Made by a program: the position numbers and the translations under genes
The notes under the pieces: model-generated
Database searches by the model: none
Seen by the model: only the letters and a program-made list of their open reading frames with translations
Told to the model about the DNA's origin: nothing
Shown: piece by piece, positions 3,090 through 37,799 of the stretch
Position numbering within the stretch: position 1 is the first letter of the stretch
How the letters are laid out: each line of letters starts with the position of its first letter
NCBI GenBank assembly: GCA_965219955.1
Contig: OZ244799.1
Coordinates: 1,920,001-1,984,000 of the forward strand
Source of the DNA: a bacterium
Lineage (GTDB): Bacteria; UBA8248
Direction: 5' to 3'
Length of the DNA: 64,000 nt

Positions 3090-4580
3090 GTGTCACGGAA
3101 GGCGATTTTCTGGATTCTATGCACAACCGGAACCCTCCTCGCCGTAGCCGTCACGGCGGTGTGGATGTTTTTTGGTGGTGATCGCGGAACGCTGGTGATC
3201 GGCAAAGGCACCGATGCCCACCACCAGATAATGACGACCTGCGAGACCTGTCACGCCGCGCCGGTTTTCGCTGATGCGGCTGCGGCGGAAAGGGCGCTTA
3301 ACAAGACTTGCCGGAACTGCCACGAAGAAGAACTGAAGGCCGCCGGTGACAGCCATTCGCGCAAGAAGTTTCGCGGTCCAAGAATGGCCGCATACTGGGA
3401 AAGACTCGATGCGCGTCGCTGTACAGCCTGCCATATAGAGCACCGTCCCGAGATCACGCGCGCAGGGGCCGTCACCGTCGCGATGGATTTCTGCGTGGCT
3501 TGTCATTCAGAAGGCGATCAGGACGTGCGGAAGGTTCGCCCGAGCCACGCGGGGCTGACCTTTAACACATGTGCGTCGGGGGGCTGTCATAATTACCATG
3601 ACAATCGCGCCCTATATGAGGATTTCCTGGTCAGGCACGCCACTCAGCCCCGGGTTGCGCCCTTACCGGTGCACAGTTTGAGTGCGCGTTACCGAACTCG
3701 GCAACTACCAGAGAAGACGGCGCTCAGAAGGAGAGACGCCATAGCTCCCGAGAGCGCGCTCGCCGAACAGGCGGTGTTGAACCAATGGGCCAGCTCCGGT
3801 CACGCGGCAGGGGGGGTGAACTGCGCCGGTTGCCACGCGCCTGATGTCGCGCAAGGTTCTCCTCGCGCCGAAGTAGAGGCCCGCTGGGTCGACGCGCCGC
3901 GCATGAGGGTTTGCGAAGGTTGCCACAAGATGCAAGCGAGAACATTTGCACGGGGAAGGCACGGCATGCGCGGACACCCATTGATCGCGCCTCCCCGCGA
4001 CCCGGGCCGCCGGCTCGAAGCGATGGGGCTCGGCGGCATCCTGCCGGAGGGAATCGCGGCCCGGTTCGCGGACCCGGCCCCTCCGGCTTTCATGACCGTC
4101 GCCGAGTCGCGTCTGCCGATGCGGGCCGACGCCGTCAGTGGAACGCTCAATTGCGGAACGTGTCACCGGCCCCATGCGGTGGACATCAAGCGGGCCGCGG
4201 TCCAAGCTTGCGCATCCTGCCACGATGACACCCACACCAGAGCCTACTTCGAAAGCACCCACTACGGGTTGTGGCAAGCCGAGCTTGCCGGTGAAGCGCC
4301 GCCGGGCGGTGGCGTCAGCTGTGCGACCTGTCATCTGGTCAAGATCGAACGTCGCGGGAAGATCATGACCAATCACAACCAGAATGACAATCTGCGACCG
4401 AACGAGAAGATGATCCGGTCCGTATGCCTGGATTGTCATGGCCTGGGTTTTGCGCTCGACTCGCTTGCGGACACGGGGCTCGTGGCCCGAAACTTCAGGG
4501 GGAAGCCCGCGGTTCATGTCAGAAGCATCGAATGGGCTAAGCGGCGCGCAGCGGCAACTGGGTGGAACAAAGGACGTTGA
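3090..4580 (+). CDS. Membrane-anchored multiheme cytochrome c (10 CxxCH + 1 CX4CH)
   Basis: N-terminal TM helix; CETCH, CRNCH, CTACH, CVACH, CAGCH, CEGCH, CGTCH, CASCH, CATCH, CLDCH plus CASGGCH. Confidence 0.9.
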   Translation: MSRKAIFWILCTTGTLLAVAVTAVWMFFGGDRGTLVIGKGTDAHHQIMTTCETCHAAPVFADAAAAERALNKTCRNCHEEELKAAGDSHSRKKFRGPRMAAYWERLDARRCTACHIEHRPEITRAGAVTVAMDFCVACHSEGDQDVRKVRPSHAGLTFNTCASGGCHNYHDNRALYEDFLVRHATQPRVAPLPVHSLSARYRTRQLPEKTALRRRDAIAPESALAEQAVLNQWASSGHAAGGVNCAGCHAPDVAQGSPRAEVEARWVDAPRMRVCEGCHKMQARTFARGRHGMRGHPLIAPPRDPGRRLEAMGLGGILPEGIAARFADPAPPAFMTVAESRLPMRADAVSGTLNCGTCHRPHAVDIKRAAVQACASCHDDTHTRAYFESTHYGLWQAELAGEAPPGGGVSCATCHLVKIERRGKIMTNHNQNDNLRPNEKMIRSVCLDCHGLGFALDSLADTGLVARNFRGKPAVHVRSIEWAKRRAAATGWNKGR

Positions 4581-4637
4581 CCAACTGCCACGCATCGTTC
4601 AAAATCCGGGAAGACAAACAGGGAGGATCAGATTGCC

Positions 4638-5258
4638 ATGCGTCTAGGCACACGCAAGCTGGTCGGACTCGCACTCGGCGCGGCGATTTTAATGGCGGCG
4701 GGTGTTGCGGCCGAGGGGATACCGCACCGCCGGGTAGCCGATATGCTGCATCTCGTAGTGTCCTCGGATCGGGCGGTGTATACGCGCAAGGTGGTCCAGC
4801 GTCTTACGAGAGACAAGAAGATCATCACCGCATCGGAGCATTTCGAAGACGATTCGGCATTGCCTCTGCCGGCGCAGATGTTCCGTTTCGGCGCGGAATT
4901 AGTTACCGACAAGACCGAGGACTTCTCGTATTCGCTACTCTCGTTACATCCGATCAACAAGAAAAACGGCCCGGGAACGAATATGGAGAGGAAAGGCCTC
5001 GAATATGTCGAAAATAATCCGGGAAAGAATTACTACGGTGAGGAGAAACTCGGCGGCCGACGCTACTTCACCGCCGTCTACCCCGACTATGCCGTGGCCG
5101 AAGCCTGCGTGAATTGCCACAACAGCCACAAGGACTCTCCCCGCGCCGATGCCACGGTCGGCGACGTGATGGGCGGCGTCGTCATTCGTATCCCGCTGGA
5201 CTTATGTCGGCGGGTTTCGCCCGTTGTCCGGCGTTGTAACCCGTATGAAAAACGATAG
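4638..5258 (+). CDS. DUF3365/Tll0287-like monoheme c-type periplasmic protein
   Basis: Signal peptide; LPLPAQMFR, SYSLLSLHPIN, single CVNCH followed by GDVMGGVVIRIP. Confidence 0.8.
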   Translation: MRLGTRKLVGLALGAAILMAAGVAAEGIPHRRVADMLHLVVSSDRAVYTRKVVQRLTRDKKIITASEHFEDDSALPLPAQMFRFGAELVTDKTEDFSYSLLSLHPINKKNGPGTNMERKGLEYVENNPGKNYYGEEKLGGRRYFTAVYPDYAVAEACVNCHNSHKDSPRADATVGDVMGGVVIRIPLDLCRRVSPVVRRCNPYEKR

Positions 5259-5716
5259 CCGACACGTTTCCGATGGTATGGACGCGCCCTCCCGGAAACT
5301 TCACACCAGAGGCAAGTGATATGGCTTGCCGCGCTGCAGGGGGTTCTCCAGGAAACAGGTTCACATCCGTATCGGTTTTTGTTTTTTGGCGTCGGATGGA
5401 TTTCGAAACGTCACGGCAGTTCCCCTCCGGACCTCGCTGGTACCCCGCATTCACGTGACGATGAAACCTTTGTCGGTCGTTCGCATTATTCTCCGGAGCA
5501 CGAACAAGGAGTAGACCATGTTGCTTTGGAACGAAGGCGGGCGGGTTGCGATTTCCCGACACCCTGTATTATCCTTTCAGAATGCTCGGAACAGGACACG
5601 GCGGAGCGAGGCCGCTACACAATCAATCTTCATGCAAGCCCAATGTGGCCTTGCGGGGAAACACCGACACTTATTCCGAATCGACCGACACACACAACGA
5701 GAACAGGGGGCCAACC

Positions 5717-6754
5717 ATGAAATCCAGAGTTCTTCTTATCTTCGTTTTGACCATCGCCATAGGAACTGCGGCGCTCGTATCCCTGCCGAGCCGGGCGGAT
5801 GCCGCCTGCAGCGTCCGCATCGGCGACCTGAACTGGGACAGCGCGAACTTTCACGATCAGGTGGCCGCCTTCATCCTGGAGCACGGCTACGGCTGCCGGG
5901 TGCGGCTCATCTACGGCGGCACGCTGCCGATCATGACGGCCCACTACGAAGGCAAGAACGACATTATCATGGAACTTTGGTACGACAACGTGAAGGCGCA
6001 GTACGACCCCGCCATGAAGAGCGGCAAGGTCAAGCAGGTGGGAGTCAACACGCCCGACAGCATACAGGGCTGGTTCATCCCGCGCTTCGTTCAGAAGGCG
6101 AATCCCGGCCTCAAGTCTGTCTTCGACCTGCCCAAGTACAAGCATCTCTTCAAGGACCCCGAAGAGCCCTCCAAGGGCCGGTTCGTGAACTGCATCCCCG
6201 GCTGGTCGTGCGAGGTCATCAACACGGTGAAGCTGCGCGCCTACGGGCTGGAGGAGCATTTCACCAACTTCCGGCCCGGCTCCGGCGGCGCGCTCGCGGC
6301 GGCCATCAAGGGCGCGTATCTCAAGAAAAAGCCGGTGCTCGCCTATTACTGGGCGCCGACGCCGCTCCTGGGACAGCTCGACCTCGTGCAGCTCGAAGAG
6401 CCCAAATGGAACGAGGCCGACTGGAACGTGGTGGTGAAACACATGGACGCGCTCAAGAAGGGCGGAATGGAGGCCTTGGGCAACCCCAAGAAGGCGACCG
6501 CCTACCGGACGGCGGAGCTGCCGAAGTCGGTCACCACGAAGTTCGCGGCCAAGCATCCGAAGATCGTCGCCTTCATCGAGAAATACACGCTGCCATCCAA
6601 AGAAGTCTCGAAGATGCTGGCCTATCTCGAGAGCAAAGCCGGCGGCGACGCCAAAGCCACCGCGATCCATTTCCTGAAGACCAACAAGGTCTGGAAGAAG
6701 TGGGTTCCGGCCGACGTAGCGAAAAAGGTCGAGGCGGCGCTCGAATCGGCTTGA
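5717..6754 (+). CDS. Glycine betaine/proline-type ABC transporter substrate-binding protein (ProX/OpuAC family)
   Basis: Start moved to MKSRVLL (signal peptide, AGGGGG SD upstream); DLNWDSA, MELW, FKDPEEPSKGRF, GWSCE, NFRPGSG, YYWAPT motifs. Confidence 0.88.
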   Translation: MKSRVLLIFVLTIAIGTAALVSLPSRADAACSVRIGDLNWDSANFHDQVAAFILEHGYGCRVRLIYGGTLPIMTAHYEGKNDIIMELWYDNVKAQYDPAMKSGKVKQVGVNTPDSIQGWFIPRFVQKANPGLKSVFDLPKYKHLFKDPEEPSKGRFVNCIPGWSCEVINTVKLRAYGLEEHFTNFRPGSGGALAAAIKGAYLKKKPVLAYYWAPTPLLGQLDLVQLEEPKWNEADWNVVVKHMDALKKGGMEALGNPKKATAYRTAELPKSVTTKFAAKHPKIVAFIEKYTLPSKEVSKMLAYLESKAGGDAKATAIHFLKTNKVWKKWVPADVAKKVEAALESA

Positions 6755-6815
6755 GTTGCGCCCGCGCGATGTTTTTTTCTCGTGAAGCGGCGCCTGGTCC
6801 CGGGGAGGTCCGCCG

Positions 6816-7724
6816 ATGATGAAGTTCTTCCGCGGACTATTCCCCGACTGGGCGGTCGAATGGCCCAAGGGCCTGAACCTGCCGCTGAACAAGTGGACCA
6901 ACGATTTCGTCGAATGGCTGGTCTACGAGTACGGGATCATCTTCGAGACCGCCTCGGACGCCATTCTCGTTCTGCTGGTCGGCCTCGAGCGTTTCCTGCG
7001 CGACCTCCCCTGGCTCGTCGTATTCTTGGGCGTGTGCGCGCTCACCTTCTTCTCCAGCGGGCGCAAATGGGGCCTGACCGCGCTGGTGGCCGCCTGTATG
7101 TTCTTCATCGGCCTCACCGATCCCAGGCTGTGGGATTTGTCGATGATGACCCTTTCGGTCATGCTGGTTTCGACCCTGATCTGCATCGGCCTGGGCGTTC
7201 CGATCGGCATCGCGATATCGAGAAACGACCGGATGCGCGACATGGTGCTGCCCGCGCTCGACCTGATGCAGACGATGCCGAGCTTCGTCTATCTCATTCC
7301 GGCGATCATGCTCTTCGGCCTCGGCGCGGTGCCCGCCGTCTTCGCCACGGTGATCTACGCCATCCCGCCGGTGGTCCGCCTGACCGACCTGGGGATCCGC
7401 CTGGTGGATGAGGACATCGTCGAAGCATCCGACGCCATGGGCGCGAGCCGGAGGCAGAAGCTCCTTCGCGTGCAGATACCGATGGCGCTGCCCAACATCA
7501 TGCAGGGAGTCAACCAGACCACGATGATGGCGCTCGCGATGGTGGTGATCGCCTCGATGATCGGAACCCGGGGGCTCGGCACCGAGGTGCTCATCGGCCT
7601 CCAGCAGCTCAACGTCGGGCGCGCGCTCGAGGCCGGCGTGGCCATCGTGCTGCTCGCCATCGTGATGGACCGCGTCACCCAGGCCTACGGCGGGCGCTTC
7701 ATCCGCACGAGCGGGAGGGTCTGA
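6816..7724 (+). CDS. Betaine/proline ABC transporter permease (ProW family)
   Basis: LDLMQTMPSFVYLIP, PPVVRLTDLGIR, EAA-like EASDAMGAS, GVNQTTMMALAMVVIASMIG. Confidence 0.92.
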   Translation: MMKFFRGLFPDWAVEWPKGLNLPLNKWTNDFVEWLVYEYGIIFETASDAILVLLVGLERFLRDLPWLVVFLGVCALTFFSSGRKWGLTALVAACMFFIGLTDPRLWDLSMMTLSVMLVSTLICIGLGVPIGIAISRNDRMRDMVLPALDLMQTMPSFVYLIPAIMLFGLGAVPAVFATVIYAIPPVVRLTDLGIRLVDEDIVEASDAMGASRRQKLLRVQIPMALPNIMQGVNQTTMMALAMVVIASMIGTRGLGTEVLIGLQQLNVGRALEAGVAIVLLAIVMDRVTQAYGGRFIRTSGRV

Positions 7725-18771: not shown

Positions 18772-19003
18772 CTGGACGCTTCTCCCTGGGTGGTTTCACG
18801 CGCCAACTGTGAAAGCCTGCACAGCGGAACGACCTTCCTCTCTATATGACGGGCAACAAAAAAAACCTTATTATAGATTATGAACTCTTACAAGCAACGG
18901 AGTATTCATTGCAGACGCTTAAATGGAGTGGATTTCGAGCCATACTAGGGCATTTCAGCGGCAGCAGACATAATTTCCATTGGTGCGATACAGGGACCAG
19001 TGC

Positions 19004-19459
19004 ATGTTGAGACAGATATTCATTGGAACTATCGTTATATTCTTTACGATTGTGATACAGGTGCTGTTCATCAGCACGGCCGCCGAAGTGCTGAGAAGAC
19101 GAAAAGCATGGCTTGTGAAACCGCCTTTCTTCGTCAAGACAATCGTTGCGCTGGTCGGCGTGGTTCTATGGCTAATCGTGGGAATCAGCCTCAGTGCATG
19201 GTCCTGGGCGGGTGTATTGCTGTTTCTCGGCACATTTCGAACCATGGAACCGGCCCTATATTTTTCCATTGTCACATTCACGACGTTGGGGTATGGGGAT
19301 ATCACCGTCGATTCGCAATGGCGCATTCTGGCCAGTTTCGCTGCCGTAGACGGCCTCATCATATTCGGTGTGAACACTGCATTTTTGGTCGAATTCACCA
19401 GGCGCTTGCGGCTGACTCAGCTAGGAATTCTCGAATCGAACAATGCGAACAACGAGTAA
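19004..19459 (+). CDS. Small potassium channel family protein (Ion_trans_2)
   Basis: ALYFSIVTFTTLGYGDI selectivity-filter motif flanked by TM helices. Confidence 0.85.
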   Translation: MLRQIFIGTIVIFFTIVIQVLFISTAAEVLRRRKAWLVKPPFFVKTIVALVGVVLWLIVGISLSAWSWAGVLLFLGTFRTMEPALYFSIVTFTTLGYGDITVDSQWRILASFAAVDGLIIFGVNTAFLVEFTRRLRLTQLGILESNNANNE

Positions 19460-20262
19460 GGAAACAACAGAAGTCCGTTCGTCACAAGAGAAGTACACAC
19501 TCTCCTTGCAAGCATTCTCTCGGGCGTTGATCTATCTCTAGAAAGAGGCCGGAGGCGGTCGCCATACTTTTTTATGGATTCCGATACAGAACAGACTTTG
19601 ATGCTAAATGCTTTCTTGAATACTTTCGCACATTGCGACCGTTCGAACCCGTAAATGCTATAACTTGAATGGTGAAGTCAAAAGCACGTGACATTACTTT
19701 CGAGATATATAAATCCAAGTTGTGGCAGATACGGTGTGCGCGCTCAATTGGAGAAGGTGGCACATCTAAAACCGCTCTTAGTAACGAGGATACTCATCCT
19801 TGCTCTTTCTATCGCGTGGTTAATGGTACGACGAATATTGTTGCGGCAGAGCCTCGGATATTCCTGCTTTGATTATAAGGCATAACACTCGATGGCGATT
19901 TCTCCCGTCCACGCCCGTAGACGCGAGACGTCGTGCCAGATATGCATTCGAAACAGCATGTCCATGCCTACGCCGAATGCCTGTTCGATACGGTGTGTCA
20001 GCTTTTGTGAAAGCGACGCCTTACCGTTCAGCAGGCCGAAAGCGTCGCACGGCGAACGCCAAGAATCCCGACGCTCCTGGTCACGCTCAGACCCAGCGCA
20101 TCGAATACCTCCGTTCTTATGAACATGAACCTGCCGAGACGAGGGCTGGACCTAATAGTGATCGTTTTCTTTTGGAAGCCGATAATTACGGGAAATCTCC
20201 ATCCGCAGGGATGAAAGCAGAAGCGTCGTGAACAACATCGAAGAACAACCCTGGAGACATTT

Positions 20263-21020
20263 CTAAAGACGGGAATCCGTCAAGGGATCGGGTAGGCTCG
20301 CGTGCAAGTGGTCCTGTTCGAGTTCGGGTGGAACGACGCCCTTCAGTTTATCGATCCGGTCGGGGATTCTTTGTACGGTTTCGCGGAACTGCTTCACCGT
20401 CCAGTCGTTGGCGTAGACCTCGGTCACGTCGCTCGGACGGGCATGGTTGAACAGTCTTTTGGTTAGCTTCCTCGGCAGCATGAGTCTACGCTCGGTCACG
20501 GTGATGAAAGCGTTTCTCAGGCCGCGGAACCAGAACTTCACGCCGCCAGCCTTACCGATGCAGGTTTAGTGGATATTTAGTTCCTAGACGTACTCCGAGA
20601 CGTTCGAGGGGTAGGGGAACACCCATTCGCGCAGGTCCGCAGGCCCGGCGTCACAGTTCGCCCTTCGGCCGGAGCGCCAGGGTCTCCCCGAGCTGCTGGG
20701 TAACGGGAAACTCCAGAGGCTCCCCGCTCTTGGTCTCCTCTATGCTGAGGATCCGCCGCTCCATATCCACCTTTTCCCGGCGCAAAGATACGATCTCGCC
20801 CCGGCGCATAACGGTTTAGAGCTCAAACCACAGAAGGTCCCTGTGCACGGGGTCTCGCACTGACCCCTCGGTACCCGCGCGCCAGCGCGGCAGCACTTCT
20901 GCCGAGGAGGATATCATGCGCTGCTTCTTGGAGTGGTAGCGTTCGCCTCCGGCGAGCCACAGTTCGACCGGGTTTCTAAGGATCTCGTTATCGGCGTAGG
21001 GCCTTCTGTACACCGGACGA
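20263..21020 (-). pseudogene. Tyrosine integrase pseudogene (third, different subfamily)
   Basis: Fragments MRRGEIVSLR..., EETKSGEPLEFPVT, KFWFRGLRNAFITV...KRLFNHARPSDVTEVYA with stops and frameshifts. Confidence 0.8.
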
Positions 21021-21049
21021 TTATCGCGAAGATGCGCAATCACGTGATG

Positions 21050-21340
21050 AAATCGATGAATATGAGCGCGGCCTCGCCGTGGGAGAACTTCTTGGTGTCG
21101 AGCCTGATATCGGGGATTTCGGGCGCCTCGCTCGGCGAATGGAGGTTTTTGAGATTTTTAAGCTCGCGCGCGTGAGTAGAGGCTATGGGGTCGCGCGATT
21201 CGCAAACCTTGAGCAGCGTGTCGATGAATATCTCGACGAACCCGCCTCGCCCACCATCCAGCGGGCCATGTCGCGTTCCGCCCGGAAGGTGGAGGCGAAC
21301 GAGGCCGGCACGATAAACCCGGCGTCGAGCATCGTTCCAG
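21050..21340 (-). pseudogene. cysC: Adenylyl-sulfate kinase (CysC/CysNC C-terminal) remnant
   Basis: MLDAGFIVPASFASTFRAERDMAR, then shifted frame FVEIFIDTLLKVCESRDP and EAPEIPDIRLDT. Confidence 0.65.
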
Positions 21341-21543
21341 GCGAACTGTAAACGCGTCGCTTGACAAATGCATCAGACTGCAATTAGGGGATTAATCCCG
21401 TGCATGCAGGCACTCGGGGCCGGCAATGATGCGCCATGGCATGACAGGCACTGCCCTGCCAGGTATCATGAGTCTTCAGCTTGCTCTTCTATATCCAGAT
21501 TCATCGAAAGGCGGCATTGCGCACTGAATGGAGGGGGCGAATC

Positions 21544-22698
21544 GTGAGTGGCTCCGCGCACCGGGAAGTTCCGGAGATTACCCTTGGGGTGGAGGAAGAG
21601 CTGTTTCTCGTCGACCCCGACACCCGCGACCTTCTGGCCGAACCGGACCCGGGCATCCTCGCGGCCTGCGAGAGGAGGCGCGGCCCTCACAAGGTGGTGC
21701 CCGAATTCCTTCGCGCCCAACTCGAAACCAACACACGCGTCTGCGGCTCGGTGGCCGAGGCGTGCGAGGCGCTGCGCGAGACCCGGCGGGTCGTTATCGA
21801 GGCGGCCGAGGAGCACGGCGCGGCCGTGATGGCCGCCTCCACGCATCCTTTCGCGCAATGGCGAACGCAGCTGGTCACGCCGAAGGAGCGCTACGAGCGG
21901 TTCGCGGCCACCTATCAGGAGAGCTTCCGCCGGATCTGCCTGACCGCCATGCATGTCCACGCCGGCTTCGGCGACCCGGAATCGCGCATCCGGGTCATGA
22001 CGTCGCTGCGGAGGCACCTTCCCCTTTTCCACGCGCTGTCGACGTCCTCGCCGTTCTACGGCGGGGGCGAGACCGGCTTGAAATCCTGGCGGCTGAACCT
22101 CCTCGGCGTGCTTCCGCGCACCAGCATTCCCGGCCCGTTGCGCACCCGGGCGGAATACGACCGCATCGTGGAAGACTACCGGCGCATCGAGGTCATCAGG
22201 GACGGCAGCGAAGTGTGGTGGGACATCCGCCCCTCCCACGCTCACCCGACGATAGAGCTTCGCATATGCGATACCTGCCCGCGCCTCGAGGACGCCGCGA
22301 GCATCATCGCCCTCTACGCCTCCCTGATCCGGTGGCTGGCGCGCCTGGACCGCGAGGGCCGCCTCCCGCCCGAGCCGCCCACGGAGATTATCGCCGAGAA
22401 CCGCTGGCTCGCCCAGCGATACGGTGTGCTGGCCTTTCTGGGCGACATGGACCTCGGAGGGCGGGTGGACATCGAGGACTACGCAACGGAGCTGATCGGG
22501 AAACTCTCCCCCGACGCCCGGGCGCTGGCGTGCGAGGATGAAATGCGCCACGTGCTCACCATCATCCGGGAGGGCAGCAGTGCGGACCGGCAAGCCGATC
22601 ATTTCCGTCTTTGCCGCCTGAATGGCGACAACCGCGAAGAGGCCATGCGCTCCGTGGTGGATATGGTGCTCGCCGAAACCCGGGAGGGTGTCCTATGA
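21544..22698 (+). CDS. ybdK: Carboxylate-amine ligase YbdK / glutamate-cysteine ligase GCS2 family
   Basis: TLGVEEELFLVDP, ASTHPF, MHVHAG, ALSTSSPF, WWDIRPS, TIELRICD, ENRWLAQRYG; GTG start with GGAGGGGG SD. Confidence 0.9.
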   Translation: MSGSAHREVPEITLGVEEELFLVDPDTRDLLAEPDPGILAACERRRGPHKVVPEFLRAQLETNTRVCGSVAEACEALRETRRVVIEAAEEHGAAVMAASTHPFAQWRTQLVTPKERYERFAATYQESFRRICLTAMHVHAGFGDPESRIRVMTSLRRHLPLFHALSTSSPFYGGGETGLKSWRLNLLGVLPRTSIPGPLRTRAEYDRIVEDYRRIEVIRDGSEVWWDIRPSHAHPTIELRICDTCPRLEDAASIIALYASLIRWLARLDREGRLPPEPPTEIIAENRWLAQRYGVLAFLGDMDLGGRVDIEDYATELIGKLSPDARALACEDEMRHVLTIIREGSSADRQADHFRLCRLNGDNREEAMRSVVDMVLAETREGVL

Positions 22699-23438
22699 AC
22701 TTTCGGACGGCTCGACATGAAATCAGGACCTCCACCAGAACGCACTCCGGTTTTCATTCCGATAGAAACGGACCCTCCGAAGGCCGAACCTTCGATGTCG
22801 ATGACGTGGGGAATATGTGCGTGTGAGCCCCGGATGCATTTGCTGATTTGGAAGGCGAGACGTATTCCGGCGAGTTGGTGAAGGTTTGGAAAACCGAACA
22901 ATCGGGCGCGTCCACCCCATCGAATACCGAACGGTAACGATTCGGCGGCAGGGTGATGGACATGCTGAAACTGGTGCCTGCATGAGGTATTGTCCGCAAG
23001 CAGTCAGACCAACTCAGTGCCCTAACCACTTCGGCAGTGCGAGGATATTCTGGTGGTACCGATGAATCTCACTGATCGTGGGGATATTGACCTCCATCGT
23101 TAACACTCATTCAGGAGAGTCCGTGGTCCGCTCTATCACCCCACCCAGCGAACGGACACATCGAAACACCTCACCAACACCTCCTATTGTAGAAGACAGG
23201 CCTAAGCCCGACAGGCTTATAGCCCAAATCGGTTTGAACAAGAGATGTTTGCTCGTCCTGTATGGGTTTCCCCCTGCTGATATTCGCCTTTGCAAACCCG
23301 CGCGCTTGGCGATGTGTCCCTTGACGCGAGGCCTTCGGAATCGCTAGTTTGAATTTGTAGCCTGTTCTACCTATTTCTACCGCCACCGAAATTTTTCATT
23401 TCTGCACGCAACGAGGTTCCGATCTCGAAGAGGGTGGG

Positions 23439-24561
23439 ATGAATATCAAAAAAAATTTGAGCCGTATCGCGCGTCGCAAGGGCGCCATGCAGGCTGAATC
23501 AGAAGACCGGCATGAGATTCCGCCTCCGGCGGCCATCGAACCGTTCGTTCCGAATACGACGGGAAATTCGGAAGCGAAGGGGTTTGGTTCGCACCAGGAA
23601 CTGGAATTGATCGCTTCCGGAGAGACTGCGCCAACCGATTCGGCGAACGGCGTGGACTCGGTTGATGGAGGCGATGCTCCCGCTCTGGAGGCATTGGTCG
23701 AGCCGGTCCCGGATGAGTCGCCGGATGCTCCCGAGCCGCCTCTTAAAGCAGCACCGTATGAGGAATATGCCCTCGAACTGGAGTTGCTGACTGAGACGGA
23801 ATCAAAAGCATCGCGGAAAGAAACGGGGTCGTCTCAGAACGATGAATTTGCGGCCCCGGAAGCAATCGATAACTTTGAGGAGGCGTCTGCGTCAGAGGCG
23901 GGAGTGCCACAGGAGACCGAGTCTGAGGCCATGGACGAAATCACTAAGGAGGAGGAACCCTTGGCGCCGGTCACGGATGAGTCGTCGTCGCAGAGTGATG
24001 CAGCGTCGTATGAGGAATATGGCCTCGAACTCGAGTCGCTGATCGAATCGGAATCAGAAGTCTCGCCGGAAGAGCCGGAACCGTCTCTGGATGAATCGTC
24101 TCTCGAAGAAGCCGCTGCCGAGGATAAGGAGATACTGACGGCGTCGGTTTTGCAAGATTCGCCGGATGAAGACGAACCGCCGCTCGTAGACGAAGAAGCA
24201 GACTCGGAGATAGCCGAAAGCGTCGCTGAAGCTACTGCACCTGAACCGGAAATCTCCAAGGAGAGTGAGCCTGCGGAAGATATCACGGAGGATGTTGGGG
24301 GATCCCCTCGCGGCTGCAGTGATACAAGACTCGCCGGATGAATCCCTGGAGCCCGCTCTCGCGGAGAACGGTATTTTCCCCCTCGTGCGGGATGCTCGCG
24401 GCACTTGGCGGTCCGGCAAGGGATTCAGCCGGGGGGAATTGCGCGAAGCGGGCCTGAGCCTCGCCGATGCCTCACGCCTGCATATCCGCTTTGACAAGCG
24501 TCGTCGCAACACGCACCCGGTGAACGTCGCATCCCTCGAACAAGCCAAGAGCGGCGTTTGA
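23439..24561 (+). CDS. Acidic repeat-rich protein with C-terminal ribosomal eL13 (L13e)-like domain; split by a +1 frameshift in a G5 tract (24297-24301)
   Basis: ORF 23439-24341 (E/D/S/P-rich) overlaps ORF 24265-24561; repeat unit xxQDSPDE continues across frames; C-term RSGKGFSRGELREAGL...IRFDKRRRN...NVASL. Confidence 0.75.
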
Positions 24562-24590
24562 GGGGCATGAACCGGCATTGAAAGGAAGCA

Positions 24591-24760
24591 ATGATGAGCG
24601 AATTAGTATTGGAATTCAAAAATTATCACGGATCCACCGAATACGATGAGGAAAACAAAACCCGGCATGGCAAGGTTCTCCCCACGTACGGGATTTGATT
24701 CCCTGCGAAGGCGAAACCGCCAAAGATTTGAGAAGGCGTTTCAGGATTCGATGAACGAGC
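24591..24760 (+). pseudogene. HicB-family antitoxin remnant
   Basis: MMSELVLEFKNYHGSTEYDEENKTRHGKVL then shifted VRDLIPCEGETAKDL...AFQDSM. Confidence 0.6.
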
Positions 24761-24885
24761 ATGGGTGCGTCCATACAAGTTTGCGGTCCGCTCTATGACC
24801 TCACGACCGAATCTCCGGCCGGGTAGGCGGGGGCATTCCCGGAGGAGAGCGAACGAATACCCTTGATGGCGGATGGGTAAGACGT

Positions 24886-25737
24886 TCACTTTCTCGCGCC
24901 ATATGCGCCCATGAGATCGCTGGTTGAGAACGTGCCGCCGACTTCCTCATGGTTCGGCCCGTAAAATGTGCCGTTGATGTTTCCCCAATCGAAAGTCCCG
25001 TTATTTTCGACACTGCGGTTGCGCCATTCGATATTCTCGTAGCTCCCACCCGTGCTTCTGCCTCTGATATTCGTGAAGGAAACATCCATCCGGGCATCAA
25101 CGGCGGACGCCCTGAATTCGAGCCGGGCATCCCCTTCGAGATGCTCTCCCCTGTTCTCTTCTGACGAATCCACCCCCAGCATCACGCCCTCGTAGGTGGC
25201 CGATGTCGCCGGAACACTTCTTGACTTGTTTCCTGCAGACATCCCGAAGCCCATTTCGAAATGAATGCCTTGGATGGTGGTCTCACCCACGAATGCTCCG
25301 AAAAGATTGTGACCCATCCATGCGCCATAACCTTCGACATTCACATCGCCATCATCCATCGGAATGGTTTGGGATGCGCGGTATAATTCAACACCATTCC
25401 TGCCTGCGATTCCGGCGAGCTGAAAGTCATCCGAGATCGAATCTTCCGCATCGATAAAGTCTCCTATGACGAATCGACCTGAATACCCCAATTGTGCATT
25501 GCTCGTGACGCAACCATCGGGAGAGCAGGTGGTGTCAATGGGGAAATCCACCGCCGCTCCTTGTTGGTCTCGGCCATACAGGTACATATCGCTCATCAGC
25601 AATAGCGCATCGTGATTCAACTGGTTGAGTTTGTACGCATCAGGCATTATTTCAGGTTGTTGTGACATCCCGGAGCCGCCACCGCAACCGAGCGCAAGAA
25701 CCGCTACCAAGGAAATTGCCAGAATGTTCCTGATCAT
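24886..25737 (-). CDS. Surface lipoprotein with TbpB-like C-terminal beta-barrel
   Basis: Lipobox LALGC followed by GGGSG; C-term ATYEG...INGTFYGPNHEEVGGTF...GAYGARK. Confidence 0.75.
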   Translation of the reverse strand: MIRNILAISLVAVLALGCGGGSGMSQQPEIMPDAYKLNQLNHDALLLMSDMYLYGRDQQGAAVDFPIDTTCSPDGCVTSNAQLGYSGRFVIGDFIDAEDSISDDFQLAGIAGRNGVELYRASQTIPMDDGDVNVEGYGAWMGHNLFGAFVGETTIQGIHFEMGFGMSAGNKSRSVPATSATYEGVMLGVDSSEENRGEHLEGDARLEFRASAVDARMDVSFTNIRGRSTGGSYENIEWRNRSVENNGTFDWGNINGTFYGPNHEEVGGTFSTSDLMGAYGARK

Positions 25738-25988
25738 TTTTTCATCGTCCCCTTATTGTGAGATATGTCCGTCCGGACCCGAAGACGGGCCTGTCTCCAA
25801 ACAACTCACGGGTTCCTGGTAAATTCCTTTCTGCTCCGACCATTCGGGAATCGTCTTTGTTGAAATTCCATTTATTCGAACGACATTCCGTGCCTGTATC
25901 TCTGGTAGCTACCCCACGCCGCGCAAACGGACAGCCAAGACGGGAGCGCATGTCAGCCCGCCGACGACCCATGAGACGGACGATCAAC

Positions 25989-28900
25989 CTAGAAGCGCAT
26001 CCTAAGAGTCACCCGCCCGGCGTATTCCGAATCGTCGGAACCCAGGCCATACACCGACACCTCGCCGCCGAGCGAGAAGCGGCCCTTGCGGTAGACGCCG
26101 CCCAGCCCGAACAGGAACCGCGTCTCGGGCGATTTCGATACGAGCCTCTCTCCCGACACGTCGACGGCAGTCTCCGCGTCGCCGAGTTTCTGTTCGAGGT
26201 CCACCGAACCCCGTAGCGAGAACATCCCTCCATCCCAGGTGCGCTCCATCTTGGCCACTAATCCGACGCCGCCCGCGAGGCGCCTCGCATCATCAATAGA
26301 GAATCGAGCGCCCGCCGAGTCGTTGAATTTGTCGATGGAAACTTCCGAGCGCGTCGCCCAGGCGCGGGGCGTGAGGTTCATCCGCTCGCTCATCTTGATA
26401 CGCCTGCCTGCTTCGAGGCTCATGAGTGTGCCGCGCGAGGCGGCGTCGCGCTTCAAGGTTCCCACATCCGCGTCGCCGGAGATGATGTCCACGTCGTAAT
26501 CCGTCAGCGAGAGGCTCCCGTTCGCGTAGTAGCCGCCCGCGCCCTTCCAGGAGGCGGCCAGCGACACGCCGGTTCCTTTCGCCTTGATGTCTCCGCCGCC
26601 TGTTGGTGCGGAAACGTCCGCAGAACCCTTCACTTGGAGCAACGATATCGAGCCGGTGAAATGCTCTCCCATTCCGATGTCCAGCCCGGCTTGCGCCGTG
26701 AAGCGATTGAAGTCGTATTCCGCGCCGACGCTCGCGCGCTCAGGCTCGTACGAGCCCCTGCCGCCGGAGAGCTTTGTCCACACCGGCGAGCCGGGCGAGC
26801 GTAACCGTTCCCCTTCAGGCGCCCCGCTGTTCAGGCGAAGTAAAAAGCCGGGCAGGGCCTCGTAGAGAGCCGCGCGTGGAGCGTAGACCTCGAGAAGGTT
26901 GCTCGAGTTGCGGGCTTCGATAACACCCGCGGCCAGCTCGCCGGCGGCCTGGTCGCCGTTCGTCAGAAAATCGGCCGCCGCATTGCCCAAGCCGCCGAAT
27001 ACATACTTAACGACCCGGCCGCCGCCTTTGTGAAAAACGGACACCGCTTTGCCTGAGCCGTCGAACACACGAATCGGCGGATTCATGCAGTCCGGCGGCG
27101 TGCCGACCTGCCCTTCCGGACAGGTGGGCGGCGTCTCGATGAAATCTCCGGCGGAAAAATCCCGGTCAGCGATGACGCCCGCAGCCGGTTCGCTGATAAC
27201 CCAGTTCACCGGGTTCGAGCCGATACGCTCCGTTACGGTAACCCCTTCCGCTCTTATCGTGACATTCCACGCCCCGTTGTGAGCCACAGCGTTGGGGACG
27301 ACGCCCTTCCCGCCATCGTGAAGCATAACCTCGTTGACCACGATGGTGGTCTCTCCCCCGTCGTTGATAATCCAGTCGTCCCCGATTACGTCACGCACCC
27401 GGCGGCCGTTCAGATTCATATCGACAAGCAGCCTGGGATCATTTCCCGCTGCATGGATTGCGACCCCATACTGCGTGCGTATCGTTCCCTCGGGTCCGAT
27501 GCAGACCTCGCCCCCGGCCGGGAGATAAACACCCGCCAAGCTGTACACGTCGCCGAATATGGGCCTGTCCACCACGACCTTTCGAGGCATCGGCGGAGGC
27601 GGCGGAGGCGGCGGTGGTGGAGGCGGCGGTGGTGGAGGCGGTGGTGGCGGCCGCGTCTCGTTGAAGTCCGCCGACGAGAAATCCCGGTCGGCGACGACGC
27701 CTGCGGCCGGTTCTGTGATCACCCAGTTCGCCGGGTCCGTGCGATCTACGGTGACGCCTTCTTCTCTCATACGGACGTTCCACGCCCCGTTGCGAGCTAC
27801 CGCGTCGGTGACCGTTTCGCCGGCGTGTAGCACGGTGCCGTTGACCGCGATGGTGGTCTCTCCCCCGTCGTTGATGATCCAGTCATCGCCGATGGCCTGC
27901 GACACCCGGCGGCCGGCGAGGTTCAGATCCACACGCAGCCTGGGTGGAATGGCCGGGAGCACGTTATCCGGGTCGGTATTGTCTTCCGCTACGGTGCCCG
28001 TGGCCAGGATCGCAATACCCGAGCCTGAGCTGATGCTGCCCTGTGGCCCGATGATCACTTTGCCGCCACCGGCAAGGTACACACCCTCTGCCGCACTGTT
28101 TATTGCCCCGTTGACCGTAACGGTCTGCTCGCGATAGCCCAATGCATCCAGGGACGCCGTAAGGAATGGCATGTTATTGCTGACTGCGCCCACCTGCACG
28201 CCACGTGCGCCCGCACCGCTCACATCGATCCTGCCACCCACCGTGACGTCCATGCTGCGTCCTGCAGCCGTCCCTCTATGATAGACCACGATGCCGTGAC
28301 CATTGGGACCCGTCGTGGTGATCCTGTTATTTGCTCCCGTGGCAAGGTTGACGTTGCCGGATCCAAAGTGCAGGCCGTAAATACCGTAAGAGTGGGTCCC
28401 GGCCGTAGTGATGGTGCCCTGCGTGTCGACATGGACGTCGCCGGTACCCTCATGAAGTCCGTAAATGCCGTGGGCCGAAGTAATGGCGTTATCCTGCGAG
28501 ATCAAACCCACACTTTCCGTGGTGATGGCGTAATCGCCTTTTATGTCGATCCGGCCCTCGCCGCTTGAGCTTGCATGATGCCAGCTGAGAACGCCATGTC
28601 CCTGTGTGCCTCTTGTCGTGATGCTGCAGGGAACTGCAGGGGAGTCCGTACAGACCAGATTGATCGCCTGGTCACCTGTACCGGAATGCTGGCTAATTAT
28701 GGCATAACCGATATCACCTCCGGTCATGATTGTAGTGTCCCTGAGCGTCATGTGGACATCGCCAGGCCCGCCCTCTCGCAAGGCAAAAAGGCCGTGCGAC
28801 CTGTTCGTCGTAACGGAAATCCCCTGGGTCAGGAGAGTGATGTTGTTTACCTGGTCTGCAGTGTAATTCTCTTTTGCGATGCGGACACCGATTCCTGCGG

Positions 28901-29489
28901 TATCAATCGTCACACCGCTCCTCAAGTCCACTTCAATGTGGCCATTGCCCCTATGCTGGGCAACCAGTCCCCAGGAAGTAGTATCTTGTGTGCGGATTCC
29001 GGTATCTTCCAATGTGAAGGTGAGGGTGCCTTCACCACTCAAGTGGGCCCAGACACCGTGTGTAACTCTGCCCGTCGTGTCGATCATCGAGCGGGTGGTT
29101 GTCATGCCTGTTGTGATACCGGCGATGCTGATATCCACATCCCCGCTGCCGAGATGCGTAGCCCTCACACCCGCGTTGGTGGTGCCGGTCCCAGTCAAGT
29201 CGATATCGATACCCATCGCATCGATGTCGATATTGTTGGTCGATGTTTCACTTTCTTCACATTCAATATGATTCCCTGTGCCAGGTGTGTTGCTGCATAC
29301 AGGCGCAGCCCGCACTTCGCCTTGGGCAAAGGCAACCAGCAGAACCGAGGCGCAAAGCCTGAGCAAGACCCGCCTCAGTTCACCGGCACACCTCCGCTTA
29401 CTCGCAAATATGAGCATATGCACAGCCTGTAACGTAGAGCGCCCCAGCAAGTCAGCGGAAGAGAGTCGTGGCATATGCCTGAAGGACAT
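25989..29489 (-). CDS. Autotransporter (type Va) adhesin-like protein with poly-Pro linker and duplicated ~140-aa passenger module
   Basis: G/T-rich beta-helix repeats (ITTxGxxxHGI), Pro20 tract at 27591-27650, YAPRAALYEALP linker, C-terminal beta-barrel ending LRMRF. Confidence 0.88.
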   Translation of the reverse strand: MSFRHMPRLSSADLLGRSTLQAVHMLIFASKRRCAGELRRVLLRLCASVLLVAFAQGEVRAAPVCSNTPGTGNHIECEESETSTNNIDIDAMGIDIDLTGTGTTNAGVRATHLGSGDVDISIAGITTGMTTTRSMIDTTGRVTHGVWAHLSGEGTLTFTLEDTGIRTQDTTSWGLVAQHRGNGHIEVDLRSGVTIDTAGIGVRIAKENYTADQVNNITLLTQGISVTTNRSHGLFALREGGPGDVHMTLRDTTIMTGGDIGYAIISQHSGTGDQAINLVCTDSPAVPCSITTRGTQGHGVLSWHHASSSGEGRIDIKGDYAITTESVGLISQDNAITSAHGIYGLHEGTGDVHVDTQGTITTAGTHSYGIYGLHFGSGNVNLATGANNRITTTGPNGHGIVVYHRGTAAGRSMDVTVGGRIDVSGAGARGVQVGAVSNNMPFLTASLDALGYREQTVTVNGAINSAAEGVYLAGGGKVIIGPQGSISSGSGIAILATGTVAEDNTDPDNVLPAIPPRLRVDLNLAGRRVSQAIGDDWIINDGGETTIAVNGTVLHAGETVTDAVARNGAWNVRMREEGVTVDRTDPANWVITEPAAGVVADRDFSSADFNETRPPPPPPPPPPPPPPPPPPPPMPRKVVVDRPIFGDVYSLAGVYLPAGGEVCIGPEGTIRTQYGVAIHAAGNDPRLLVDMNLNGRRVRDVIGDDWIINDGGETTIVVNEVMLHDGGKGVVPNAVAHNGAWNVTIRAEGVTVTERIGSNPVNWVISEPAAGVIADRDFSAGDFIETPPTCPEGQVGTPPDCMNPPIRVFDGSGKAVSVFHKGGGRVVKYVFGGLGNAAADFLTNGDQAAGELAAGVIEARNSSNLLEVYAPRAALYEALPGFLLRLNSGAPEGERLRSPGSPVWTKLSGGRGSYEPERASVGAEYDFNRFTAQAGLDIGMGEHFTGSISLLQVKGSADVSAPTGGGDIKAKGTGVSLAASWKGAGGYYANGSLSLTDYDVDIISGDADVGTLKRDAASRGTLMSLEAGRRIKMSERMNLTPRAWATRSEVSIDKFNDSAGARFSIDDARRLAGGVGLVAKMERTWDGGMFSLRGSVDLEQKLGDAETAVDVSGERLVSKSPETRFLFGLGGVYRKGRFSLGGEVSVYGLGSDDSEYAGRVTLRMRF

Positions 29490-36523: not shown

Positions 36524-37570
36524 TCATCCTATCCGCCAAGCCGTCACGCCACCCTGCGCGTCGAGCGCGGCAAGCGCGCGCCCGTCCGGACGCCAATACA
36601 GCTTCGCCCCGATGCCCGCCAATACCGCGGTCCCGATCGGACGGCCATTTCCGTCTCTCTCGAGCGACCACACCACTACGGCGCCATCCCGTGCCGCCGA
36701 TGCCAGGCGCATCCCGCGGCGAGCGAAGGCAAGCGTCGTAACGGGTTGAACATGACGCTCCAGAACACCGGGCCGCGTGCCTTCGGGGCCATCTCCCTCG
36801 AAGCTCCAGACCGTCACCGCCTCCCCTCCGCCGGTGGCCAGAAGGGTGCCGGTATCATCGAAAGCCAGGGCCGATGGCTTGGCGGAATATCCTGACATCA
36901 TGGCGTCCTGCTCCGTGGAGCGACGCCAGAAGTGCACGGTGTTGTCCTGGCTGCCGCAGGCCACGATATCCCCGTCCGGGCTCAGCACCATCGACACCAG
37001 GGATCCCTGCCACTCCAGCTTCTGGCGAAGCTCGCCGGTGGGCGCGTCGAAGAACGTCACTCGGCCGTAACAGGCCGTCGCCAGCTCCCCTGCGCCCGAC
37101 CAGGCGATCGCGCTGACCGTGCTGGGTTGATCATCAGATCGCCAAACCTCCGCGCCGTCCACGCCATACGCGCGAACCTGCCGGGAGCAGGAGGCCGCCA
37201 ACCACTGGCCGTCCGGCGACCACGCCACGTTCTCCACCCAACCGCCCCCGATGTCGATAGCCTGTTGTACCTGACCTTCGGCGACACCCCAGATGAGGAC
37301 TCGTCCGTCCTGGCCGGCCGTAGCGAACGCGGTTCCGCTCGGGTGGATCGCCACCGCGAGCACACCGCCTTCATGAACCCCGCGCCGCTCCCAGGTGGTC
37401 GCGCCGGACTTGCCGTCGAATGCGTAAACGCCGCCCGCAGCGTCACCGACCATCAGCGCCTCACCACGCAGGCTCCAGCCACCGGCAATAGCGTAGTCGC
37501 CAACCGCCGCAGACCAGCCCCGGCGAAGAACACCCCTTGGGCCGTCGTCATTTTGAAGTGCCGCCGACAT
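36524..37570 (-). CDS. WD40 repeat protein
   Basis: Repeats TAGQDGRVLIW, VAWSPDG, CGSQDNTVHFW, SAARDGAVVVW; start placed at MSAALQ. Confidence 0.88.
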   Translation of the reverse strand: MSAALQNDDGPRGVLRRGWSAAVGDYAIAGGWSLRGEALMVGDAAGGVYAFDGKSGATTWERRGVHEGGVLAVAIHPSGTAFATAGQDGRVLIWGVAEGQVQQAIDIGGGWVENVAWSPDGQWLAASCSRQVRAYGVDGAEVWRSDDQPSTVSAIAWSGAGELATACYGRVTFFDAPTGELRQKLEWQGSLVSMVLSPDGDIVACGSQDNTVHFWRRSTEQDAMMSGYSAKPSALAFDDTGTLLATGGGEAVTVWSFEGDGPEGTRPGVLERHVQPVTTLAFARRGMRLASAARDGAVVVWSLERDGNGRPIGTAVLAGIGAKLYWRPDGRALAALDAQGGVTAWRIG

Positions 37571-37571
37571 C

Positions 37572-37799
37572 TCAATCAGCCTCGGCAGCCGCAATCGCTG
37601 CGATGTTGGCCAACAGCCATGCGGATGCAGCAAACAACTGCAACCAATCCCCACCGGACCTGATCCCGTAAGTCAGCATGCTGCCAATCCAGCAAAGGCT
37701 GGCAGCCGTTTGTCCGAGCCATTCGATGCTCCGCACCCTGGCTAGTCGGCTTCGCCTCGCGCCAGACGCGACGGCCCCTTCGTCGTTTCCCGTCAACAT
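37572..37799 (-). CDS. Small two-TM membrane protein
   Basis: WLGQTAASLCW...DWLQLFAASAWLLAN; abuts both neighbours in the operon. Confidence 0.65.
   Translation of the reverse strand: MLTGNDEGAVASGARRSRLARVRSIEWLGQTAASLCWIGSMLTYGIRSGGDWLQLFAASAWLLANIAAIAAAEAD

Follow-up and report, generated by a model that had tools for sequence, protein, structure and literature searches.

An eL13-like domain at the C-terminus of a bacterial acidic protein family, with a frameshifted copy in a UBA8248 genome

Introduction

eL13 is regarded as an archaeal and eukaryotic ribosomal protein. The gene described here is bacterial, and its coding sequence ends in an eL13-like domain preceded by a long acidic region. 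It lies at 23439-24561 of the window, the stretch of 64,000 nucleotides (nt) that was analysed (contig OZ244799.1, positions 1,920,001 to 1,984,000; GTDB lineage UBA8248). The copy in the window is split by a frameshift, and intact relatives occur elsewhere in the same genome and in other genomes of the genus. Records from this genus carry the label 'Nitrospinota bacterium' or 'Nitrospinaceae bacterium', and 'Nitrospinota' is used below in this sense.

The closest described relatives of the domain are eL13 and archaeal L13e. The family domain shares with them a core of about 60 residues (R-x-G-[KR]-G-F-S-x-x-E-L-x-x-A-G-L ... D-K-R-R-R-N ... N-V), and its predicted beta-hairpin and three helices superpose on eL13 chains. 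In contrast, it covers only part of the profile and is found at the C-terminus of an acidic protein of 240-540 amino acids (aa), and its gene varies in copy number, is often broken, and lies outside any ribosomal-protein operon.

A second comparison concerns DruH, which partners DruE in type III Druantia and is reported to bind single-stranded DNA (ssDNA) (bioRxiv 10.64898/2026.05.12.722862). The likeness is limited to a family of long bacterial proteins with Ig-like repeats, the long family, in which the gene for the large partner abuts or overlaps a gene for a DruE-like helicase. The helicases associated with the long family differ in showing only DEAD, Helicase_C, and MZB domains in Pfam and no nuclease domain, and the window locus has no helicase. 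The long family has the C-terminal domains closest to that of the Nitrospinota proteins, includes members with acidic N-terminal repeats (P0108, P0117), and is present in two congeners, whereas the Nitrospinota proteins, the short family, lack its beta-sandwich middle region of about 450 aa.

Type II HicAB modules form a third comparison. Genes for HicB (PF05534) and HicA (PF07927) follow the intact paralog and several orthologues of the window gene, but the acidic protein matches neither the HicA nor the HicB family. In the literature searched, no print description was found of the bacterial distribution of the eL13-like domain, of this architecture, or of the link to DruE-like helicases; the supplementary tables of a survey of YprA helicases (PMC12458937) may list the partner family.

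The eL13-like domain

The core of the domain occupies 24373-24558 on the forward strand and reads PLVRD...GKGFSRGELREAGLS...FDKRRRN...NVASLEQAKSGV, with a net basic charge. The Pfam model Ribosomal_L13e (PF01294) matches it at 31.9 bits, above the gathering score of 24.9 (E 1.5e-7), over profile positions 25-98 of 180. The archaeal NCBIfam model PRK12277 matches at 51.6 bits, under its equivalog cut-off of 96, with only positions 25-73 of 83 aligned, so that the similarity to archaeal L13e is neither full-length nor at the equivalog level. A profile built from 16 family members matches the eL13 chains of solved ribosomes with E values of 2e-10 to 6e-5. Among the 60 matches listed, all are eL13 or L13 chains except two IcmE/DotG sequences, which have no qualifying stretch.

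The AlphaFold2 model of the last 75 residues comprises a beta-hairpin and three helices (predicted local distance difference test score, pLDDT, 80.7). Its 50 listed Foldseek matches in the PDB are all eukaryotic ribosome or pre-60S entries, with TMq of 0.57-0.71 and 27-38% identity. E values of 0.001 or less were obtained for 31 of the 50, and at least 20 are chains or entries named as eL13 in the profile search. The predicted structure has the eL13-core fold. The C-terminal module is homologous to the core of eL13, as judged by its sequence and by the predicted fold. The sequence-only reading had quoted the last approximately 62 codons (24373-24558, stop at 24559-24561) as they are read here and had assigned them to eL13. 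The assignment is borne out by the Pfam match above the gathering score and by Foldseek matches to eL13 chains; the profile search and the structure comparison that it had named as checks both gave significant eL13 matches.

The alignment of 16 members has 25 invariant columns in the C-terminal 60 or so residues. The motif DKRRRN is invariant in the family and common to eL13, and the last 62 residues of family members have a net charge of +6 to +10. The ratio of nonsynonymous to synonymous rates (dN/dS) over 60 C-terminal codons ranges from 0.05 to 0.47 in 14 pairs. The window copy gives 0.16-0.38 against intact copies of the same paralog type (type B, below) and 0.24-0.39 against broken ones (L032, L003). 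By these codon comparisons, the eL13-like domain is under purifying selection.

Relatives and origin of the domain

A profile search over 1.84 billion representatives (E of 1e-3 or less) returned 766 hits. The best 150 are mostly long proteins of a bacterial type, and the rest are short L13e proteins of an archaeal type. Once the close family is set aside, the top scores belong to proteins of 580-970 aa in which the domain forms the very C-terminus (P0107 with 95 bits and P0108 with 79 bits). Short proteins of 55-130 aa reach at most 66.6 bits, and three of their clusters are named archaeal or L13E. One archaeal locus (Hydrothermarchaeota) is 56% identical, and eukaryotic eL13 sequences in the PDB reach at most 43 bits.

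A quick maximum-likelihood tree was built from 196 domains and 62 columns, with no eukaryotic rows, and its resolution is poor. It unites 33 Nitrospinota domains in one clade (Shimodaira-Hasegawa-like approximate likelihood ratio test, SH-aLRT, 90), inside a cluster with 95 long-family domains. This cluster is split at a support of 81 from 57 short domains and 8 long-family domains. The sequence comparisons favour a domain that is nearer to bacterial modules than to archaeal or host eL13. The bacterial modules look closer in sequence to the archaeal form than to the eukaryotic one, and an older transfer from archaea to bacteria is possible. The proposal of the sequence-only reading, that this bacterium acquired the domain by transfer between domains of life, is not supported: the bacterial modules score best, and the clade lies within their cluster in the weakly resolved tree. 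Transfer straight from the sponge host or from archaea living beside the bacterium is provisionally ranked below descent from bacterial modules, on account of the score order and of a tree that lacks eukaryotic rows.

The locus in the window and its frameshift

The span 23439-24561 measures 1123 nt (3n+1), and its translation in a single frame meets a TGA at 24339-24341. Open reading frame (ORF) A (23439-24341, forward strand) ends at this codon, a premature stop that results from a frameshift. It encodes 300 aa with 82 D+E residues as against 17 K+R and an isoelectric point of 4.05. The N-terminus is conserved and basic (MNIKKNLSRIARRK) and is followed, in the N-terminal alignment, by the motif EIPPPAAIEP. 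The remainder consists of about 260 aa of acidic repeats rich in Pro, Ala, and Ser. A motif of the form YEEY(A/G)LELE.L, which recurs in orthologues, is present as YEEYALELELL at 23757-23789 (forward strand, aa 107-117) and as YEEYGLELESL at 24009-24041 (forward strand, aa 191-201). The two repeat regions give a DNA self-match of 100 nt with 77% identity (23748-23847 with 24000-24096). ORF B (24265-24561, forward strand) lies in the +1 frame and comprises the end of the acidic region and the eL13-like domain. Its frame is open from 24214, with candidate starts GTG at 24265 and ATG at 24292 and the stop TGA at 24559-24561.

The acidic repeat region claimed by the sequence-only reading is present, with the 300-aa ORF, its 82 D+E residues, both YEEY repeats, and two copies of QDSPDE. 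The claimed fusion of the acidic region to the eL13-like domain stands as the architecture of the family, which is intact in 14 of 22 unique loci, and fails for the window, where the frameshift splits the ORF. QDSPDE occurs once per frame, the second time in the +1 frame, which indicates that this reading had crossed the frameshift without noticing it.

A tblastn search with the intact paralog of 416 aa (L001) locates the frame switch at ...EDVG|DPLAA.... The site is a run of five G residues (G5) at 24297-24301 on the forward strand, and one G fewer gives an uninterrupted fusion ORF of 373 codons. Contigs of four public runs from four studies were compared over 23350-24850. The allele with four G residues (G4), in which one letter is omitted at 24297, was found in a DNA run (X6, 20.4 of 20.4 depth) and likewise in an RNA library (X10, 14.4 of 14.4). 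Runs X2 and X11, from two further studies, contain G5 and are identical to the window. No other insertion or deletion is listed in the four runs over this interval. The G4 contigs also carry single-nucleotide polymorphisms (SNPs), four of which are common to X6 and X10. These SNPs point to another strain and not to correction at the RNA level, and the recurrence of both G5 and G4 across runs indicates a real polymorphism as opposed to chimerism or a private sequencing error.

The runs in which this DNA occurs carry the labels sponge metagenome (two studies), marine metagenome, and a coded organism. In each of the four runs compared, the Logan contigs are interrupted at a 31-mer that is repeated (24146-24175). 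Contigs of the RNA library cover the gene; DNA carry-over is possible, so they are not counted as proof of expression. From these sequences, the window copy appears to be switched off wholly or almost wholly in this strain; a sister strain has it intact. A little full-length product could arise by slippage on G5.

At position 23441, the RNA-library contig X10 reads ATA for the start ATG, which is one of its SNPs. Together with three orthologous loci that have no canonical start at the conserved N-terminus (L010, L014, L027), this suggests that the true gene start may be non-canonical or a few codons downstream.

The short acidic family in the genus

The genome under study consists of one contig of 4.28 Mb with 61% GC and contains three eL13-like loci, two of which are broken. 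The intact paralog, L001, is an uninterrupted gene for 416 aa with the same order of parts, about 154 kb from the window copy and beside tRNA-Asn. PF01294 matches were found in 17 of 22 other genomes of the genus and in none of 18 genomes outside it (two from other genera of the same family, two from the same order, seven from the same class, and seven unrelated). With P0107 as the query, no match was obtained outside the genus in 27 of 28 genomes of the phylum. A search limited to lengths of 228-728 aa yielded 97 proteins with 71% identity or more in the C-terminal 77 residues; 96 of these have a precomputed PF01294 match, and NCBI names four of them 'ribosomal protein L13e'. Genomes carry 1-3 copies of the gene. 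This is not the distribution of a universal single-copy ribosome component: five of the 22 congeners gave no PF01294 match, and two of the three own copies are broken.

Two of the 22 unique loci bear two labels each, with identical frames (L009 and L025, L011 and L019). The gene runs from an ATG at the conserved N-terminus through to the stop in 14 of the 22. It is frame-broken in four (the window, L003, L009, and L032), cut by a contig end in one (L011), and without a canonical start at the conserved N-terminus in the remaining three. The other broken copies are broken at sites different from that of the window.

The N-terminal region of about 60 residues is conserved (MKKKFLSRIARRK..., IPPPxAIEPGVPYS, YGSHxELELL). 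The middle region is variable, with a length of 140-440 aa, 26-31% D+E, 9-15% Pro, and almost no basic residues, and its acidic repeats carry a conserved YG-x-[DE]-hydrophobic-[DE]-x-L motif. Complex prediction between the N-terminal 80 aa and the C-terminal domain gave a score of 0.00, with controls not run, and says nothing on self-masking. PADLOC gave no match for the acidic protein of L001, and the ESM Atlas gave no usable matches for the L001 protein or P0107.

Family genes sit between metabolic genes. The type A paralog has a conserved neighbourhood, with ilvD, PEGA, and luciferase-like or alpha/beta-hydrolase genes upstream and NmrA-like, DctP, molybdopterin oxidoreductase, and cytochrome b561 genes after it. 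The type B paralog has the N-terminus MNIKKN...AES and comprises the copies in the window, L003, L026, L029, L031, and L032. It is a second copy in varied contexts, and three of the six copies are broken.

The third copy in the own genome, L003 (G000:C1:1851203-1854316, positions 383-1656), is split at a place other than that of the window copy. It alters otherwise invariant residues (RRRN to RRPN and FSR to FSG) and has the appearance of an older pseudogene. The 3' end of a gene for a tyrosine recombinase (integrase) immediately precedes it, and a near-identical ORF (P0001) is present in other assemblies.

The downstream HicAB genes

A remnant of hicB lies at 24591-24798 on the forward strand, spread over three frames with at least two frameshifts. 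In a tblastn search of the window with the HicB of L001, residues 1-29 and 30-50 matched in different frames. The hicA gene of the intact paralogous locus is missing, and the window holds no intact hicA/hicB pair. In contrast, L001 is followed by intact genes for HicA (84 aa) and HicB (116 aa). Pfam HicB matches the latter, and HicA_toxin matches the HicA of the L015 orthologue. Sixteen of the 22 unique loci have hicB or a remnant of it immediately after the gene and on its strand, with hicA in between in six; where hicA is missing, the gap between the gene and hicB is about 30 nt. Five loci are without hicB, and in L029 the only hit is upstream on the opposite strand. HicAB looks like an old neighbouring insertion in decay.

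The long family and DruE-like helicases

The long family counts at least 291 proteins, 378-1206 aa in length. A single name turned up, 'hypothetical protein [Verrucomicrobia subdivision 3 bacterium]' (P0213), and cluster look-ups returned names for none of 10 proteins. Pfam recognised only the L13e tail in 27 of the 33 long-family proteins scanned. The AlphaFold2 model of P0150 (pLDDT 82) starts with an N-terminal helix and a disordered linker, continues with beta-sandwich domains over about 430 residues, and ends in the eL13-like tail. Its Foldseek matches are S-layer proteins, complement MG domains, and Ig receptors; their TM scores are low, which is expected for an arrangement of beads on a string. 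Some members have long acidic N-terminal repeats (P0108 and P0117), PIN or helix-turn-helix N-termini, or a DUF4389 domain.

Among 149 long-family members, the tail is eL13-like in 120 and of another kind in 29. P0298 ends in the N- and C-domains of Ribosomal_S5 (residues 692-812; 31 and 68 bits) and P0317 in Ribosomal_S6 (residues 847-925; 30 bits), with a weaker match in P0314. Several other tails are basic and match no assigned family; they consist of a K/R-rich coiled coil or of a winged-helix-like segment with an Arg-rich end. From these sequences, the C-terminus of the long family looks like a swapping site for small nucleic-acid-binding modules.

In 7 of the 13 metagenome loci surveyed (L034-L046), the long-family gene is directly followed by a gene for a helicase of about 1400 aa with DEAD, Helicase_C, and MZB (MrfA Zn-binding) domains. 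The three helicases scanned all match PADLOC DruE, at E 1e-146 to 1e-155. A place next to a DruE helicase is thus found for long-family relatives and not for the window gene, which has no DruE helicase among its neighbours. Two genomes of the same genus carry a pair of long-family and DruE-like genes, G007 (L057, 9959-16202) and G009 (L058, 8742-15498). Neither has a PF01294 match, and the tail in G009 is not eL13-like. With the queries used, no genome was found to hold both the pair and the short acidic family, which is present in 17 others and in the own genome. The pair may, on sequence grounds, be an undescribed two-gene system of the Druantia type.

In G007, the pair lies between a fragment resembling molybdopterin oxidoreductase and an alpha/beta-hydrolase gene, both of which are flanks of type A; the flank match is short (35 aa). 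In L046, a long-family member of 1331 aa (3472-7467) has an extra N-terminal region that matches PADLOC MzaA at E 3.5e-65, which points to modular exchange with another defence system. A scan of viral contigs with P0107 found no relatives.

Surroundings of the gene

A stretch of lower GC content extends over 22700-26000 (0.53-0.59 vs 0.62-0.68 in the flanks) and contains the acidic/eL13-like gene, the hicB remnant, and a TbpB-like lipoprotein gene. GC content at third codon positions is 0.50-0.60 for its ORFs vs 0.71-0.84 for the large flanking genes (GCS2, autotransporter). An Rfam scan of 18800-26200 gave one match only, at chance level. A promoter scan found none, the terminator count was not above that of shuffled sequences, and the window has no tRNA genes. 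Upstream of the gene, a segment of about 220 bp (22934-23156) recurs at two other places in the genome (C1:4085358-4085590 and C1:2822726-2822943) with 77-79% identity; it matches no Rfam family or tRNA.

The reverse strand downstream encodes a protein of 283 aa (24886-25737) whose C-terminus matches the TbpB beta-barrel lobe (PF01298). It adjoins a gene for an autotransporter of 1166 aa (25989-29489, reverse strand) with a tract of some 20 prolines and a passenger segment that contains an internal duplication. Further downstream on the same strand (36524-37654) is a gene for a WD40 beta-propeller protein of 376 aa, a repeat type common in eukaryotes.

Discussion

The window gene is a frameshifted type B copy of a family found, among the genomes searched, in one genus only. 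The reading preferred here, with middling confidence, is that the proteins of this family bear a portable nucleic-acid-binding head on a polyanionic tail and are not ribosomal proteins. The eL13-like module would be a small portable head for RNA or ssDNA, as its ancestry and charge suggest. The acidic tail would be a disordered polyanion that either shields the basic head or, in competition with nucleic acid, binds basic partners. The short family would be related to the helicase partner but stand on its own, independent by now of the helicase, and bacteria may have put the eL13-like module to new use at a site that other RNA-binding folds of ribosomal proteins can also occupy. A nucleic-acid-binding head fits the reported ssDNA binding by DruH. 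The congeners without a PF01294 match, the varying copy number, and the frequent breakage argue against an ordinary ribosomal protein.

A wider and more speculative proposal, which is rather doubtful, is that domains derived from ribosomal proteins serve as interchangeable heads on the Ig-repeat partner of a DruE-like helicase, in an undescribed subtype of the Druantia type. The Nitrospinota proteins would then be a stand-alone offshoot with the head on a polyanionic tail, and they might act as a decoy or mimic against phages or the host.

Several results weigh against the preferred reading. Nucleic-acid binding is suggested by ancestry and by the net charge of +6 to +10, and descent of the short from the long family by the C-terminal domain only. 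A comparison by hhalign of the N-terminus of the short family with the long family gave nothing (probability 0.3), so that the visual impression of homologous basic and amphipathic N-terminal helices in the two families is unsupported. The tree comprises 62 columns, has supports of 81-90, contains no eukaryotic sequences, and places eight long-family domains on the archaeal side. No PADLOC model matches the long family (seven proteins), and hhalign of the long family with the partner of DruE on a Clostridium butyricum plasmid gave a probability of 0.4; the analogy to DruH is thus one of position only. The PADLOC result says little by itself, since PADLOC also named no partner for the DruE-like gene on that plasmid. 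Finally, the own genome has no DruE-like helicase (1413-aa query) and, with the queries used, no beta-sandwich region, so any defence role would have to be independent of the helicase.

Other explanations apply to the same observations. The roles put forward by the sequence-only reading (ribosome-associated factor, host-directed mimic, nucleic-acid-mimicking tail) are speculative. In one explanation, the protein is a ribosome-associated factor whose domain docks on the rRNA or ribosome of the bacterium itself and whose tail acts there, for example as a stalk-like recruiter or as an assembly or hibernation factor. Homology to an rRNA-resident protein, the invariant DKRRRN shared with eL13, and the uS5- or bS6-like domains at the same position of the long family fit such a ribosomal theme. 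This role is nevertheless unlikely, given that five of the 22 congeners gave no PF01294 match and three of these no match to P0107 either, that copies vary in number and are often broken, and that there is no linkage to translation genes. Phase variation by a G4/G5 switch, or rescue by ribosomal or transcriptional slippage on G5 to give the full-length protein, is quite unlikely. There are indeed two alleles (G5 in the window, X2, and X11, and G4 in X6 and X10), and slippage by +1 on GGG-GGA would give back precisely the conserved reading ...VGDPLAA.... However, the tract has only 4-5 bases, G4 is linked to SNPs and hence to a different strain, and the other broken copies are broken elsewhere; contigs cannot show heterogeneity within a sample. 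An artefact, in which an assembly chimera or a sequencing error lies behind the fusion or the frameshift, would fit a break in a homopolymer and the interruption of the contigs of all four runs at the 31-mer at 24146-24175, but it is largely refuted and hardly credible. The G5 form occurs without differences in two other studies and G4 in two more, the same order of parts is intact in 14 loci of other genomes, and the large neighbouring genes are intact. Contig chimerism, which the sequence-only reading had named as a ground for abandoning its claim, is likewise contradicted by the coverage of the locus in contigs of four studies and by orthologues in conserved synteny.

A host-directed role, in which a 'eukaryote-like' exported protein mimics nucleolar or ribosome-biogenesis components of the sponge cell, is in line with the presence of this DNA in sponge-metagenome runs of two studies, the confinement of the family to one genus among the genomes searched, the variable repeats, and the WD40-repeat gene in the same window. 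It is very unlikely, as no hydrophobic signal peptide is visible by eye at the basic N-terminus (no predictor was run), no secretion-system genes are adjacent, and the nearest relatives are cytoplasmic-looking bacterial proteins associated with defence and not host eL13. Equally little credence is given to a third component or functional partner of the downstream HicAB. The position of hicB or its remnant directly downstream in 16 of the 22 loci, the six cases with hicA in between, and the short gap of about 30 nt elsewhere would suit a partnership, but many loci have lost hicA and carry a truncated hicB beside an intact acidic gene, five have no hicB, and L029 has it on the opposite strand. 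The pattern resembles the decay of an old neighbouring insertion.

Significance

The domain itself is already known, and the window locus is a modest, broken member of its family. The relatives show the eL13 core as a widespread and mobile C-terminal module in bacterial proteins, and the automatic annotation of some family members as 'ribosomal protein L13e' is misleading. As a fast-evolving and lineage-specific group with strongly conserved ends, the short family is a candidate for a role in conflict or host interaction. Anti-phage systems may have taken up folds of ribosomal proteins as sensors or binders of nucleic acid, and the link to DruE-like helicases, together with the exchange of the eL13-like domain for uS5 or bS6-like ones, makes this a concrete and testable idea.

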